This document shows, piece after piece, positions 19,652 through 29,229 of a stretch of DNA of 32,000 nucleotides (the first letter of the stretch is position 1; every line of letters begins with the position of its first letter). This DNA comes from Candidatus Baldrarchaeota archaeon (GTDB lineage: Archaea > Asgardarchaeota > Baldrarchaeia > Baldrarchaeales > DXJG01), in contig DXJG01000009.1 of the NCBI GenBank assembly GCA_019056805.1, positions 1 through 32,000 on the forward strand, written 5' to 3'. The notes beneath the pieces were generated by a model. It ran no database searches and had not been told where the DNA came from. It worked only from the letters and a program-made list of their open reading frames with translations. The position numbers were made by a program, and so were the translations under genes.

Positions 19652-20425
19652 TCACTCCCTAAATTTAATGGTATCTGGCATATTCCATAAATAATAGAAG
19701 TAATCTCTAGCCAGAGTAGCCAATTCTATGTGTGTACTCCAAATAGCTAATACCGTATTCCTATCTTTTTCAGCCAAAAGTAACATTACCTCGTGATCAT
19801 CCACAATAACTCCTCCGCCATATAGCCGGTCTCTTATCCTAACCTCACCATATCTGTTCAATTTAGATAATATTTCTGGCTTAGAACTGCTAGAAGTTAA
19901 TATTTCAACTTTAATATTTCGAAGCCTTAAACTTCTAAGAGTATCTTCAATTACCTTAACATCTTCGACATTTATTTCGCTCATAGATATCATTACCTTT
20001 TTCTTAGCACCCTCAAACATTTCTGTTATTCTCGCCAAAATGTTTTCGATTCCTCTTATTATGTAAACCTTAGGTCTCTCGATTGACACCTGTTTTTCAT
20101 ATAGGGGCTGTAATCTTTCGATTACAATGTTTTCATAATTTTCTAATTGCTTTTCTAATTCGGTTTTAACAGTTTTGACTGCTTCGGAAGGTGAGTGAGG
20201 CTTATAAAGTTTAGGTCTTCCACTTAAAGCTTCTATCCAACCCTTTTTTTCTAAACGAGTCAAAACTTCATAAATTCTACTATAAGGTATACCTGAAATA
20301 GAGCTAATTTCAGCTGCAGTCATGGAGCCATTTTCTAATAATGTAATATATACCCTTGCCTCATATTCTGTAAGCCCAAGACCCTTTAATGCTTGAAATA
20401 TTTCCATATCTTCCAAGCCAAACAC
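19652..20425 (-). CDS. TrmB-family transcriptional regulator
   Basis: LGLTEYEARVYITLL, SGIPYSRIYEVLTRLEKKGWI wHTH; C-terminal effector domain (IVDDHEVML). Confidence 0.92.
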   Translation of the reverse strand: MFGLEDMEIFQALKGLGLTEYEARVYITLLENGSMTAAEISSISGIPYSRIYEVLTRLEKKGWIEALSGRPKLYKPHSPSEAVKTVKTELEKQLENYENIVIERLQPLYEKQVSIERPKVYIIRGIENILARITEMFEGAKKKVMISMSEINVEDVKVIEDTLRSLRLRNIKVEILTSSSSKPEILSKLNRYGEVRIRDRLYGGGVIVDDHEVMLLLAEKDRNTVLAIWSTHIELATLARDYFYYLWNMPDTIKFRE

Positions 20426-20569
20426 CTTAAAACCCTAAACTGCTAAATAAGTGTTGAACTATGATGAGATAACTATACCATATTAACCAATAACTTTATT
20501 CATATACTTTAGAAAACATTACGGTCTTCTAAATCTTAAGGCAAATAACAATTATGTTAAACGATCGGG

Positions 20570-25240: not shown

Positions 25241-25909
25241 ATGAAAACTAGATTTTTCTCTATTGAAAGAGCTAGAAAAGCTCAACGATTACTTGCAAAG
25301 ATGGTTATTGAAAAAAATAACTTTCCCTATCCTCCTAGAACTGTTGGTGGGGTTGATGTTGCTTACGTAGGTGATTATGCTATAGCAGCAGTGGTTGTCA
25401 TGGATTATAACACTTTAGAAGTTAAAGAAAAAGCCGTGAACGTAGTTAAAGTTAAATTTCCATATGTCCCAACGCTTTTATCATTTAGAGAATGTTACCC
25501 GATGATAAAGGCTATAAAAAAACTTAAAGAACTACCTGATATTCTTATGGTTGATGCTCAAGGAAGACTTCATCCCTTTAGACTTGGCGCTGCAAGCCAC
25601 CTAGGAGTTGTACTTGACATTCCAACGATAGGTGTAGCCAAAAAACTACTTTGCGGCAATATCGGAGAAAGAACAAATAATTGGGCTCCAATCTATGACA
25701 AAGGTGAACTTATAGGAGCAGCGGTGTGGACCAAAAAGAATACAAAACCAATATTCGTTAGCGTCGGACATCGTGTAACGCTTAAGACAGCTATTGAAAT
25801 TACAATTAACACGTGCAAGAAATACAAGCTACCCGAGCCAATCAGACAAGCTCATATTGCTGCAACACTGGAAAGAAGATTAATCAAGGAAGGTGTTGAA
25901 CTTGGATGA
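25241..25909 (+). CDS. nfi: Endonuclease V (deoxyinosine/inosine nuclease)
   Basis: GGVDVAY, FPYVPTLLSFRE, MVDAQGRLHP, IGVAK, PIFVSVGH, KLPEPIRQAH. Confidence 0.95.
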   Translation: MKTRFFSIERARKAQRLLAKMVIEKNNFPYPPRTVGGVDVAYVGDYAIAAVVVMDYNTLEVKEKAVNVVKVKFPYVPTLLSFRECYPMIKAIKKLKELPDILMVDAQGRLHPFRLGAASHLGVVLDIPTIGVAKKLLCGNIGERTNNWAPIYDKGELIGAAVWTKKNTKPIFVSVGHRVTLKTAIEITINTCKKYKLPEPIRQAHIAATLERRLIKEGVELG

Positions 25910-26582
25910 CAAACTTTGGTATACCCTTTTCCTATTAGCTAGGAAAGGTGCGGTTAAAAATCCCGTTGAAATTTCATCAACAAGATTCTGCGAGGAGTTA
26001 AATGTAAGTCAACAAACAGCCTCTAGGCGTTTACAAGAGTTAGAAAAACTAGGGTACATAACAAGAGAAATTAAAAGACAAGGACAACTAATAAAAATTA
26101 CTGAAAAAGGTGTAAACATTTTAAAAGAATTATATTATGGTTTAAGAGCGATATTTGAGGAAAAACCAACAATAGTAAAGTTAGAAGGGGAAGTATTTAC
26201 TGGTCTTGGTGAAGGACGTTTTTATCTCTCACTAGAGAAGTATAGAAAACAAATCTTAGAAAAACTGGGCTTCCTGCCATATCCTGGAACACTTAATTTG
26301 AAATTAAAAAACAAAGTGGACCTAGAAACCAGGAAGATGTTAAAATCTTTTTCCGGAATCAGGATAAAAGGATTCAAAAACGATTTAAGAACCTATGGGG
26401 ATGCTATTTGTTATCCAGTGCTTATTAATGAAAAAATTTCAGGAGCAATTATATTTGCACAGAGAACTCACTACGGAGATGATGTTTTGGAAATCATAGC
26501 TCCTGTATGCCTTAGAGAAACCCTAAAATTAAACGACGGCGACACCGTGGTTCTAACAGTAGATTTAAGACAATTATATTAA
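25893..26582 (+). CDS. ribK: CTP-dependent riboflavin kinase with N-terminal wHTH (RbkR-type bifunctional regulator)
   Basis: SQQTASRRLQELEKLGYITR wHTH; GEVFTGLGEGRFY, PYPGTLN, RTHY..DVLEIIAPVCLRE.L.L.DGD kinase motifs. Confidence 0.93.
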   Translation: MLNLDDKLWYTLFLLARKGAVKNPVEISSTRFCEELNVSQQTASRRLQELEKLGYITREIKRQGQLIKITEKGVNILKELYYGLRAIFEEKPTIVKLEGEVFTGLGEGRFYLSLEKYRKQILEKLGFLPYPGTLNLKLKNKVDLETRKMLKSFSGIRIKGFKNDLRTYGDAICYPVLINEKISGAIIFAQRTHYGDDVLEIIAPVCLRETLKLNDGDTVVLTVDLRQLY

Positions 26583-27229
26583 ATATCAAGAGTATGAAAT
26601 ACTTCGTTAATCTTTTTAATTATTTTTGAAGTTTTTGCAAGGGGAGAAGAATCCCATACTTTAAGTCTTATTACTTTACAATGAAGATCATGCTTCTTTA
26701 AGTCTTCTTCTAATTTTCTTTTATTTACCGGCTGATCTCTTCCAAGGGCAATCAAATCTGGTTTCACTTTTCTAATTGGTTCTAAAAAGTCTTTTTCTGA
26801 TCCTAAAATTGCAAGATCGACTGGTTTAAGTGCCTGAACAATAATCTTTCGTTGATTCTCTGGTATTACTGGTAAACGACCCTTTACTTTTTCAACGGTT
26901 TTATCCCTAGCTACTATAACTACGAGAAGGTCCCCACGCTTTTTCGCTTCTTCCAAAGTTCTTATATGCCCCGTATGAATGATATCATATGTACCAGCTG
27001 TTAAAATAACTTTGAATTGTTTTCTTCCACGGTCATCTATGATGTATTTTGCTTTTCTTTTCTCGCTTTTACCTAAACTTTTAATATAGCCGGCTGCATG
27101 AAGTTTTTTTAAAATTGCAGAAGTTCTGCTATAACTTTTTCCTAACAGCTTTGATAAGCTTTCAATCGTAAAGAAACCATGTTTAAGTTGAAGGAGATAC
27201 GCGGTTTTTAAAATATCTCTTGTCTTCAT
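26579..27229 (-). CDS. ribL: FAD synthetase (RibL-type cytidylyltransferase fold) with N-terminal wHTH-like extension
   Basis: AGTYDIIHTGH (HxGH), LVVIVARD, PVIPENQR, KPDLIALGRDQ, KTSKI; about 70-aa basic N-terminal extension. ATG 27229 has GAGGT RBS (track start 27274). Confidence 0.8.
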   Translation of the reverse strand: MKTRDILKTAYLLQLKHGFFTIESLSKLLGKSYSRTSAILKKLHAAGYIKSLGKSEKRKAKYIIDDRGRKQFKVILTAGTYDIIHTGHIRTLEEAKKRGDLLVVIVARDKTVEKVKGRLPVIPENQRKIIVQALKPVDLAILGSEKDFLEPIRKVKPDLIALGRDQPVNKRKLEEDLKKHDLHCKVIRLKVWDSSPLAKTSKIIKKINEVFHTLDI

Positions 27230-27279
27230 ATTTTCTACCTCTCGGTGGGATTCTCTCTGCAATCTAAGTTCCATGGACT

Positions 27280-28008
27280 TTAAACATACATTGGTAAGGA
27301 TCCTGGTTCCTTTTGTACTTTTTCCTCTTGTTCTTTAAGTTGAGCTATTTCTTGTTCTATTTGTTTAGCATCTTTAATAAGCTGTTCTGTCGGAACATTA
27401 AGATTATAAAATCGATTAATTACTTCTATAGCTGTCGCAGCAGCCATCGGATCCGGTCTCCCTCTCTGCGCATACGGTAGTAAGGCAATAGCAGGAAATT
27501 CTTTAATCTCATAGTAGGCTAAAAGAGCTGCTAAAGGACCTACAACATACAGATTTTTATCTAACCTCTTTAATTCCATCTTTTTGTCATTTGATTTGAA
27601 GCTTGATGTAGGAACAACTCTTAATTTTTCTTCTCCTGTCTTTAATTTAATATCTAAACCACCTATTAAAATGGCTTCCTTAAATCGATTTTTAACGGTC
27701 CATTCGGCTAAAATTTTCATTAGAATATTTTGTTCAGATGGAGCTGGTTGAAATCTCGGAAGAAACAACACAATATCCTTATACATGAACAACTCATAAG
27801 GAGTAAGCACTCTTTGGTCATCGAGAGAAACTATCGGCGGATATTGTTCCGTTGTAATGTAACCTATAAGTTCAGCTTTAGTAGATTCTATCATATGGTT
27901 TACTGCAATATACCCGGTATAACCGATACCGTGGAAGCCAGTTATAAAAACGCTGTTTTCTAAGTCAACCTTTTTCTTTAATATAATATCTATATTCAAT
28001 TTTATCAC
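27280..28008 (-). CDS. PAC2-family proteasome assembly chaperone (PbaA/B-like)
   Basis: ITGFHGIGYTGYIA, ILIGGLD, VVGPLAALL, PDPMAAA, LIKDAKQIEQ; C-terminal ..PMYV is an HbYX-type tail. Confidence 0.9.
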   Translation of the reverse strand: MIKLNIDIILKKKVDLENSVFITGFHGIGYTGYIAVNHMIESTKAELIGYITTEQYPPIVSLDDQRVLTPYELFMYKDIVLFLPRFQPAPSEQNILMKILAEWTVKNRFKEAILIGGLDIKLKTGEEKLRVVPTSSFKSNDKKMELKRLDKNLYVVGPLAALLAYYEIKEFPAIALLPYAQRGRPDPMAAATAIEVINRFYNLNVPTEQLIKDAKQIEQEIAQLKEQEEKVQKEPGSLPMYV

Positions 28009-28013
28009 CTCAT

Positions 28014-28301
28014 CTAAGTTGTATAACGCCGTGCACGTATTAACAGAACCTTTAATTTTCTTTCATTCAAAAATATAAAATCCGCGTTTATTTTTATGGC
28101 TGAAAATGGAACAGCGACGCATCCATTTTCATCCATTGGTAACTTATTTAACAATTCACTAAGCTTATTTGGTTTAATAAGCACACCAACTATCTTTCCA
28201 TCTTCTTTTTTAACTAAAAGATCTACAACATCGCCTATTTTTTCCATTTTCTCATTCTTTACTGGCAGATCCAAAAGTTTTGAAAATGATATCTCACTCA
28301 A
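28014..28301 (-). CDS. PRC-barrel domain protein
   Basis: SKLLDLPVKNEKMEKIGDVVDLLV...GKIVGVLI...VPFSAIK matches the PRC-barrel pattern. Confidence 0.85.
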   Translation of the reverse strand: MSEISFSKLLDLPVKNEKMEKIGDVVDLLVKKEDGKIVGVLIKPNKLSELLNKLPMDENGCVAVPFSAIKINADFIFLNERKLKVLLIRARRYTT

Positions 28302-28368
28302 ACCACTTCACCTTACTGAAAAACATTTCAAAATATTATTAAAGTTTGAGTATAAACTAGACACCTAG

Positions 28369-29229
28369 GTGAGTTTATTGAGTATCAATTGGAGGATTGC
28401 TGCTCTTCATCTCGTACCTCCCATCATTTCTACTGCCTTTATTTCAATAATATTCGCATTAATTCACAAACTTTCAAACATAGAGATAGAAGCAACACCA
28501 TTTTCAGAAGCTCAACTGGGTGCAACAGGAGCATTTCTTAATATGATCCTTTACATCTCTTTAGCCTTTATTGGAGGATTCGCCCTATACATATTATTTC
28601 GTAAGGCAAAAATTAATATTCTCAAGTTAATTTTCACCATTTTCTACTTTTTTACTTCTTTCTTTACCTTACTTTTACTCGAGGACGAAGTTCTAATCAT
28701 TTTAGGTATCCAAACTATTAACATATTTATTTATTTCCTTCCAGTTTTTCTATTAGCCTTCCTAATCACATACATTTCCATGTTCTCCAAGTCTAAAAAC
28801 GCCAAAAAAATAACCATAATATTCTTCTCATCTCTAATGGGATTCCTTCTCGGAATCTCTTTACCAATTCTCACCTTAACATTTACCCTAATAGCCCTTT
28901 CTCTCTATGATATTTACTCAGTCAAAAAAGGACCAATTAAAAATATAATGAAAACCATTGAGGAAAATAAAAGTCAATTTGATGAACTAACTCTATCTTA
29001 TACAAGTCAAAATATAGAAATAGGCTTGGGAGACCTCATATTCTACACAGCGCTCAACGTACGTGTAGTAATAAACTACTCAATATTCTCCATCCTCATG
29101 ACTTTCCTCGGTATTTTCATAGGTCTCCTAATAACTTGCAAGTTACTAGAAAAAGAACATATGGTACCAGGATTACCATTACCATCACTATTAGCAATTA
29201 CTTTCCTTTTTATATCATTACTAATTTAA
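28369..29229 (+). CDS. Presenilin-like GxGD intramembrane aspartyl protease
   Basis: About 8-9 hydrophobic segments; YD (D181, 28909-28911) followed by KKGPIK; GLGDLIFY (D222, 29032-29034); PGLP (PAL-equivalent) near the C-terminus. Confidence 0.92.
   Translation: MSLLSINWRIAALHLVPPIISTAFISIIFALIHKLSNIEIEATPFSEAQLGATGAFLNMILYISLAFIGGFALYILFRKAKINILKLIFTIFYFFTSFFTLLLLEDEVLIILGIQTINIFIYFLPVFLLAFLITYISMFSKSKNAKKITIIFFSSLMGFLLGISLPILTLTFTLIALSLYDIYSVKKGPIKNIMKTIEENKSQFDELTLSYTSQNIEIGLGDLIFYTALNVRVVINYSIFSILMTFLGIFIGLLITCKLLEKEHMVPGLPLPSLLAITFLFISLLI

Follow-up and report, generated by a model that had tools for sequence, protein, structure and literature searches.

A predicted FAD synthetase with an N-terminal winged helix, encoded beside rbkR in a Baldrarchaeia genome and widespread in TACK and Asgard archaea

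In a 32,000-nucleotide stretch of DNA from a Candidatus Baldrarchaeota archaeon of low GC content, about 34% (positions 1 to 32,000 of contig DXJG01000009.1, assembly GCA_019056805.1; hereafter "the window"), two convergent genes are predicted to convert riboflavin to flavin mononucleotide (FMN) and FMN to flavin adenine dinucleotide (FAD). The plus-strand gene, rbkR, encodes a riboflavin kinase with a winged helix-turn-helix (wHTH) regulatory domain. The minus-strand gene, ribL, encodes a predicted FAD synthetase with 73 additional residues at its N-terminus. An earlier reading of the letters of the window (the original prediction) had suggested that RibL is a flavin-sensing enzyme-regulator analogous to NadR. 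Here we describe, by computation, the fold, domain architecture, distribution, linkage to rbkR, and charge of this protein, and we consider what its N-terminal domain may do. To our knowledge, just one archaeal enzyme that makes FAD has been characterized, and it has a single domain. In the literature that we searched, we found no description of regulation at this step or of a winged helix on RibL. The features of the two genes are:

25893 to 26582, plus strand: rbkR, bifunctional wHTH regulator and CTP-dependent riboflavin kinase, 229 amino acids (PF01982, MarR_2, NF010762, and structures 3cta/5trd)
25893 to 26162, plus strand: wHTH domain of RbkR, residues 1-90, net charge +3
26007 to 26030, plus strand: start of the recognition helix of RbkR, SQQTASRR, residues 39-46 (from invariance in relatives and the alignment to TaRbkR, the RbkR of Thermoplasma acidophilum)
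26193 to 26561, plus strand: riboflavin kinase domain of RbkR (PF01982)
26579 to 26582, no strand assigned: TTAA, a 4-nucleotide overlap between the stop codon of rbkR and that of the convergent ribL
26579 to 27229, minus strand: ribL, predicted winged-helix FAD synthetase, 216 amino acids plus stop codon; no other RibL-like gene was found in the genome
26582 to 27010, minus strand: catalytic domain of RibL, a nucleotidyltransferase of the FMN adenylyltransferase type, residues 74-216 (PF01467, 3glv)
26966 to 26977, minus strand: HTGH nucleotidyltransferase signature, residues 85-88 (H85, G87, and H88 invariant)
27011 to 27229, minus strand: N-terminal winged-helix domain of RibL, residues 1-73, net charge +14 (from AlphaFold2, Foldseek, and profile comparison to the PDB)
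27047 to 27082, minus strand: basic wing, residues 50-61, which includes KSEKRKAK (from the predicted structure and the family alignment)
27095 to 27133, minus strand: putative recognition helix H3, residues 33-45, YSRTSAILKKLHA (from predicted secondary structure)
27237 to 27243, minus strand: GAGAGGT, a Shine-Dalgarno-like site 7 nucleotides upstream of the ATG of ribL

The palindrome TTAA supplies both stop codons: its two strands are the TAA of rbkR, which ends at 26582, and the TAA of ribL, which ends at 26579. This agrees with the 4-nucleotide tail-to-tail overlap that had been noticed before. We place ribL at 26579-27229 because its close homologs are all 216 amino acids long and because GAGAGGT lies 7 nucleotides before the ATG at 27229; in relatives, the site at the same position is AAGAGGG. 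A longer open reading frame from the ATG at 27274 (26579-27274, minus strand, 231 amino acids) was rejected, as its 15 additional residues are in no homolog and it is the ATG at 27229 that has the ribosome-binding site before it.

Residues 74-216 of RibL belong to the cytidylyltransferase-like family PF01467 (E = 2.5e-19), and the nearest solved relative is 3glv from Thermoplasma volcanium (E = 6.6e-29, 41% identity; by Foldseek, template modeling (TM) score 0.91 and root-mean-square deviation (rmsd) 1.8). In two family alignments, H85, G87, and H88 of the HxGH motif are present without exception. The cytidylyltransferases ECT, GCT, and Fom1 score 1e-14 or weaker against RibL, as compared to 6.6e-29 for 3glv, and the NCBIfam models of other enzymes are all under their cut-offs. 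The relatives of RibL carry the source names FAD synthase or FAD synthetase, and the name of the ESM Atlas cluster is archaeal type 3 FMN adenylyltransferase. The genome is 91% complete and has a single copy of the RibL-type gene. From homology, single copy, and gene context, we infer that ribL encodes the cell's only RibL-type FMN adenylyltransferase (FAD synthetase). The prototype of the family is MJ1179 from Methanocaldococcus jannaschii (Mashhadi et al. 2010, as it is cited in PMC5397151 and PMC11423594). The protein from the window has in common with MJ1179 and 3glv the nucleotidyltransferase fold, the HxGH motif, a C-terminal K-T/S-S motif, occurrence in single copy, and a link to a riboflavin kinase gene. 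The characterized RibL and 3glv are single-domain proteins of about 140-150 amino acids, however, whereas RibL from the window has the 73-residue winged helix before the catalytic domain.

Three independent lines of evidence agree that these 73 residues are a winged helix. When the whole protein was modeled with AlphaFold2 on the family alignment, the mean predicted local distance difference test score (pLDDT) was 88.7 and the predicted TM score (pTM) was 0.84. In this model, the extension consists of a helix (residues 3-17), a short strand, two more helices (22-29 and 33-45), a strand, the wing loop, another strand, and a short helix that runs into the first strand of the Rossmann-like domain. 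If residues 1-73 are folded alone, then the topology is unchanged (pLDDT 89.7). The original prediction had described about 70 additional N-terminal residues with helix-turn-helix and wing features (the peptide that it quoted is residues 6-68) and had proposed AlphaFold as a check; the models bear it out. When the isolated domain was compared to the PDB with Foldseek, all 50 of the matches listed were wHTH DNA-binding proteins, and nearly all of these are transcription factors. The matches listed include MarR, MepR, MntR, BldR, and IdeR from T. acidophilum (TM score 0.86, rmsd 1.1 Å over 72 columns). With a sequence profile of the domain, wHTH chains in the PDB are matched at E-values as low as 3.8e-6, and RbkR is among them at E = 0.022. 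Single members of the family have sub-threshold Pfam matches to TrmB, PadR, MarR, and Fe_dep_repress. When we searched the ESM Atlas by language model for sequences that resemble residues 1-73, there was no usable match. Given the agreement of the AlphaFold2 model, Foldseek, and the comparison of profiles to the PDB, the extension is predicted to be a genuine MarR/TrmB/IdeR-like winged helix, which in the model runs straight into the catalytic Rossmann-like domain, with no flexible linker between the two. There is no close paralog of this domain in the genome. Its nearest relative there, with E = 1e-7 by profile, is the wHTH of a TrmB-family regulator, which is also encoded in the window (19655-20434, minus strand; PF01978 at E = 5.5e-27, plus Regulator_TrmB).

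The original prediction had suggested a survey of how far the fusion extends, and the fusion proved to be widespread among TACK and Asgard archaea and no local curiosity. In a profile search over 1.84 billion representatives, about 90 of the best 150 clusters at 50% identity match from the N-terminus. Among 198 relatives that we collected, 125 have an extension of 50-100 amino acids and 43 are plain. The winged-helix architecture occurs in over 100 protein clusters at 50% identity. The named loci with extended RibL are from Bathyarchaeia, Nitrososphaeria (including Nitrosopumilus), and Methylarchaceae, while plain RibL is found in Methanosarcinales, ANME-1, Archaeoglobi, Thermoplasmata, and Methanomassiliicoccales. 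Among the 201 Asgard genomes that we sampled, the extended form is present in the window's own family, its sister family, and a few others, and plain RibL is the form in most. Two clusters in the ESM Atlas, one from Bathyarchaeota with 169 members and one from Nitrososphaerota with 68, have models that superpose on our two-domain model at TM scores of 0.89 and 0.83 across residues 1-214. Because the superposition spans both domains, their relative placement is reproduced by an independent predictor. The study that described RbkR (PMC5397151) treats RibL only as an FAD synthetase and as an occasional member of the regulon. Winged-helix RibL is a real and widespread variant of a known enzyme, and apparently an undescribed one.

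Is it possible that the open reading frame was wrongly extended and that RibL truly begins near residue 74? Plain RibLs of about 140-160 amino acids do occur in many archaea. But the extension is conserved as protein in those more than 100 clusters, it folds with confidence (pLDDT about 90), a Shine-Dalgarno-like site precedes the first methionine, and there is no other methionine between residue 1 and the catalytic domain. These observations refute a start-codon artifact, and we give it practically no credence.

The other gene of the pair is more familiar. Residues 101-223 of RbkR are a CTP-dependent riboflavin kinase domain (PF01982, E = 1.2e-43), preceded by a wHTH of the MarR_2 type. The combined wHTH/riboflavin kinase model NF010762 matches at E = 8.5e-75, with a bit score (250.9) that is below the model's curated cut-off of 279. 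The structures of RbkR from T. acidophilum (3cta/5trd) align over the full length (E = 1.8e-42). The N-terminal wHTH that had been ascribed to the kinase is indeed there. In TaRbkR, the residues that contact the operator are Ser38-Gln/Glu39-Gln40-Ser41 (PMC5397151), and in our alignment they correspond to SQQT (residues 39-42) in the window's RbkR. S39, Q40, Q41, A43, and S44 do not vary across 27 RbkRs from Asgard archaea, Bathyarchaeia, Thermoprotei, and Verstraetearchaeota. As it shares both the architecture and the recognition-helix residues of the protein studied by Rodionova et al. 2017 (PMC5397151; 3cta/5trd), rbkR is, judging by its sequence, a standard member of the published family with known biology. 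Its GTG start overlaps the last 17 nucleotides (25893-25909) of a gene for endonuclease V (25241-25909). Because of this overlap, rbkR lacks a dedicated intergenic promoter in this genome and differs in this from the rbkR-ribB units in the literature, which are autoregulated.

Extended RibL is strongly linked to rbkR. A gene for RbkR or RibK adjoins about 43 of 48 distinct loci with extended RibL, as compared to 12 of 61 loci with plain RibL. (Before two duplicate loci were removed, the extended set included 33 convergent neighbors, 10 tandem neighbors, and 2 with RibK only.) Since related genomes are not independent, this is an association and not a test. In two genomes of an Asgard family (f25), RibK, winged helix, and RibL form a single polypeptide of 345-348 amino acids, which lacks the N-terminal wHTH of RbkR and is the sole PF01982 match that we found in those genomes.

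If the winged helix of RibL reads an operator, then its recognition helix might be expected to resemble that of RbkR in its conservation, so RbkR from the matching lineages served as an internal control. The recognition helix of RbkR is 80-100% identical between the window and other families or phyla, and the wHTH and enzyme domains of RbkR are conserved to about the same degree. RibL does not show the conservation of this proven reader: identity to the window across H3 is 60-93% within the genus and 0-27% outside it. Outside the genus, the winged-helix domain as a whole is 19-29% identical to the window's, as compared to 48-60% for the catalytic domain. The only invariant residue in the winged helix is G68, and L7 is nearly so. 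The positions that are conserved lie in the hydrophobic core and in the L-T-x-x-G-R turn that is usual in winged helices. The two proteins share a design in which a flavin-cofactor enzyme has a MarR-like wHTH at its N-terminus. The DNA-reading helix of RbkR is nearly invariant across phyla and its operators have been mapped, while the corresponding helix of RibL is not conserved. The net charge of the domain also varies, from -7 to +14 across the family; it is between -7 and +3 in Nitrosopumilales and most Asgard families, and about 0 in most Nitrosopumilales and in most of the Asgard families other than the window's. The pattern across the family fits an accessory winged helix better than a conserved reader of operators.

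The window's own domain is at the basic end of this range. Its charge of +14 over 73 residues is 0.19 per residue, and the 99th percentile of the proteome (taken from the genome's long open reading frames) is 0.105; the values for the catalytic domain of RibL and the wHTH of the genome's RbkR are 0.06 and 0.03. H3 begins with K-S-Y-S-R-T-S and, as far as G-Y-I, keeps to the pattern that is usual for a wHTH. The SY start is shared by a few distant members of the family, whose wings are long and rich in glycine, arginine, and lysine. Because the domain is very basic and has a canonical recognition helix and a basic wing, it is plausible that RibL binds nucleic acid in this genus, at least electrostatically.

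Our best explanation, which we hold with moderate confidence, is that winged-helix RibL is the cell's sole RibL-type FAD synthetase and that it carries an old accessory winged helix, which would bind nucleic acid in this genus. The module would have been inherited along with the neighboring rbkR in the TACK archaea and in several Asgard lineages. Across the family, only its structural core would be kept and the would-be DNA-reading helix would evolve freely, which is not how a conserved operator-reading domain would behave. In this genus of Baldrarchaeia, the charge of the module seems to have become extremely positive; its recognition helix has the canonical S-x-S-R-T-S, and its wing is rich in lysine and arginine. 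While the enzyme makes FAD, the module most likely binds nucleic acid here, by electrostatic attraction at the least.

Several observations weigh against this explanation. In the known cases of N-terminal wHTH domains on cofactor enzymes (BirA, NadR, and RbkR), these are the DNA-binding domains of repressors, so prior expectation leans towards a regulator more than our explanation does. Net charge does not by itself separate the RibL domain from DNA readers: proven RbkR wHTH domains range from 0 to +10, and because of this span, charge alone is not decisive. Every member of the genus-level clade retains the SYSRT of H3, and this points to a surface under constraint. As for the enzyme, the air sensitivity of RibL from M. 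jannaschii has been attributed to a pair of cysteines (PMC11423594), and this pair is not kept in the window's RibL, which has just one cysteine (residue 184); nor is there a conserved cysteine column in the first of the two family alignments.

The main alternative is a bifunctional enzyme and repressor, in which a dimer of winged-helix RibL would sit on a palindromic operator in the promoters of flavin genes, and the occupant of its active site (FMN, ATP, or FAD) would tune its affinity. A tier that responds to FAD would then be added to the FMN/CTP tier of RbkR, by analogy to BirA, NadR, and RbkR itself. To look for operators, we considered the sequences upstream of ribL and of the other flavin genes. 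Two features upstream of ribL are relevant:

27280 to 28301, minus strand: genes upstream of ribL in the same orientation, PAC2-family (27280-28008) and PRC-barrel (28014-28301), identified by Pfam matches and probably in an operon with ribL
28319 to 28360, no strand assigned: 42-nucleotide conserved block in the divergent promoter of the PRC-PAC2-ribL unit (from the alignment of three distinct loci from the genus, with one A/G substitution)

The order PRC-barrel, PAC2, ribL is also found in the genus, and ribL appears to be the last gene of this unit. When we compared members of the genus, there was no conserved palindrome in the 50 nucleotides that separate ribL from the PAC2-family gene. 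The ribosome-binding site is the only conserved part of this region, and autoregulation of ribL through the region was dropped from consideration. The 42-nucleotide block lies on the other side of the unit, between it and a presenilin-like gene (28369-29229), and the coding sequences that flank it vary more than it does. It contains TATA-like boxes and a weak inverted repeat, TCAAA-N12-TTTGA.

The ribB-ribC-ribH operon is on another contig (C11). A perfect 22-bp palindrome, TATACATGAATATTCATGTATA, lies about 180 nucleotides upstream of it (C11:52899-52920; locus L082:1278-1299). The only near copy of the palindrome in the genome has two mismatches (contig C17:306662-306683; locus L092:3163-3184), where we estimate that roughly 0.01 would be expected. 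The near copy is about 50 nucleotides upstream of a gene for a ribbon-helix-helix protein, which is followed by genes for ATP sulfurylase and a nucleotide pyrophosphatase-family protein (PF01663). The ribbon-helix-helix protein is the simplest candidate for the protein that binds the palindrome, and neither the palindrome nor the 42-nucleotide block can be assigned to winged-helix RibL. Closer to ribB, 45-62 nucleotides upstream, is TTAC-N10-GTAG (C11; L082:1417-1434), which matches 7 of the 8 bases in the consensus operator for RbkR that was reported for Thermoplasmata and Thaumarchaeota (PMC5397151). This site is a candidate operator for RbkR, which would be consistent with the conserved SQQT in its helix. 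A scan of the genome for the RbkR-type site TTAC-N10-GTAA gave 51 exact matches, which is near the expectation for an AT-rich genome; one near the best candidate for an energy-coupling factor (ECF) S-component gene lies within coding sequence, about 440 nucleotides upstream, and was dropped. We did not find ribB (PF00926) in four relatives whose genomes are 82-96% complete (G029, G039, and G018 from the same genus and G007 from the same order), so phylogenetic footprinting of the ribB promoter is not possible. The window's group may have recently gained or lost the pathway for riboflavin.

How well does a repressor explain these observations? The fold is canonical and is closest to the DNA-binding domains of MarR, MepR, IdeR, and MntR. 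The recognition helix has the usual pattern, S..(T/S)S..L..L...G(Y/L)I, next to a basic wing, and the charge density of the domain is far above that of the proteome. Within the genus, SYSRT is conserved and the promoter block before the PRC-PAC2-ribL unit is nearly invariant (one substitution). A repressor of flavin genes could also account for the perfect palindrome upstream of the ribB operon, for the tight and ancient link to rbkR, and for the subset of distant members with GKSY- or SY-start helices and long Gly/Arg/Lys-rich wings. But H3 is not conserved between lineages (0-27% identity, versus 80-100% for RbkR), and in much of the family the domain is neutral or acidic, with charges of -7 to +3 in Nitrosopumilales and in most of the Asgard families. 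Also, there is no conserved palindrome in the 50 nucleotides before ribL, which is apparently at the end of an operon of unrelated genes; the second copy of the palindrome precedes the gene for a simpler candidate binder; and ribB was not found in the four relatives, which carry the same basic domain. We consider the enzyme-repressor to be unlikely. In this genus, with a similarly low probability, a dimer of winged-helix RibL would bind a specific operator and respond to the occupancy of the adenylyltransferase site by FMN, ATP, or FAD. If so, then RbkR (riboflavin to FMN) and winged-helix RibL (FMN to FAD) would each report to transcription, and the fast evolution of the recognition helix would reflect lineage-specific operators instead of a loss of function.

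The comparison to NadR needs some qualification. NadR (HTH, nicotinamide mononucleotide adenylyltransferase, and ribosylnicotinamide kinase) and BirA (wHTH and biotin protein ligase) both have an N-terminal DNA-binding domain on an enzyme that adenylylates a cofactor, and winged-helix RibL resembles them in fold. In NadR and BirA, the ligand state of the enzyme can set repression, whereas for winged-helix RibL both DNA binding and control by a ligand are only proposed. The adenylyltransferase of NadR is from the same HxGH superfamily as RibL but is not orthologous. The NadR models NF005988 and TIGR01526 match RibL at E = 0.014-0.016, with 14 bits as compared to cut-offs of 201-341, and RibL has no kinase domain. 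Of the original proposal of an undescribed, NadR-like, flavin-sensing enzyme-regulator, what stands is that the extension is a winged helix, that the protein was not described in the literature that we searched, and that in this genus its domain is basic and looks competent to bind DNA. The sensing of FAD or FMN by a NadR-like regulator is not supported: H3 diverges outside the genus, many members of the family are neutral or acidic, there is no conserved palindrome in the 50 nucleotides before ribL, and the catalytic domain is only a remote superfamily relative of that of NadR (E = 0.014). A NadR-like role is possible but doubtful in this genus, and it is not supported across the family.

The winged helix might instead be an adaptor that docks RibL to RbkR, RibK, or another partner, so that FMN would be passed directly from the kinase to the adenylyltransferase. 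This would be a non-covalent counterpart of bacterial RibF and of the archaeal RibK-winged helix-RibL fusion. The adjacency of rbkR to extended RibL (about 43 of 48 loci, versus 12 of 61 for plain RibL) is as expected for an adaptor, as is the fusion in family f25, where the winged helix sits between RibK and RibL domains and no other RibK was found. A fast-evolving surface is expected of a lineage-specific interface, and some members weakly match HemN_C, a domain that resembles a winged helix and belongs to a cofactor enzyme. However, the co-occurrence may be phylogenetic inertia among related genomes; RbkR is highly conserved and the winged helix is not, which is a poor fit to a co-evolving interface; and a domain with a charge of +14 should not be attracted to the mildly basic RbkR (+3/+5). 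A predicted complex of RbkR with winged-helix RibL had a score of 0.00, which counts neither for nor against binding. Overall, we think that an adaptor is quite improbable.

The winged helix is found on RibL across Nitrososphaeria (including cultured ammonia oxidizers), Bathyarchaeia, and Asgard archaea, locked beside RbkR, and this leaves two possibilities. Either a second enzyme-regulator that senses a cofactor exists in these archaea, or a core enzyme has taken over a DNA-binding fold for a role that does not involve DNA. Also, database annotation leaves about 70 residues of RibL unassigned, and a decision between the two would correct this.

RibL is found in other fusions as well: with DUF357 (DUF357-RibL, which is also seen in an ESM Atlas cluster of 81 members from Thermoproteota), with a CCA-adding enzyme (CCA-adding enzyme-RibL), with Nudix (RibL-Nudix), and with LAGLIDADG (LAGLIDADG-RibL). 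There are also forms of 580 amino acids with about 360 unassigned N-terminal residues ahead of winged-helix RibL. Like winged-helix RibL, the DUF357, CCA-adding enzyme, and Nudix fusions and the RibK-winged helix-RibL polypeptide show that RibL often gains additional domains, but among the fusions that we saw, only the winged-helix form is both phylogenetically broad and tied to rbkR.

Finally, the convergent order of rbkR and ribL is kept from Nitrosopumilales to Asgard archaea, with 3' ends that overlap or are within a few tens of nucleotides. At most of these loci, 15-42 nucleotides separate the matched segments, and at a few the distance is longer. Such deep conservation of a convergent pair is unusual, and it could reflect antisense or termination coupling between the two genes.

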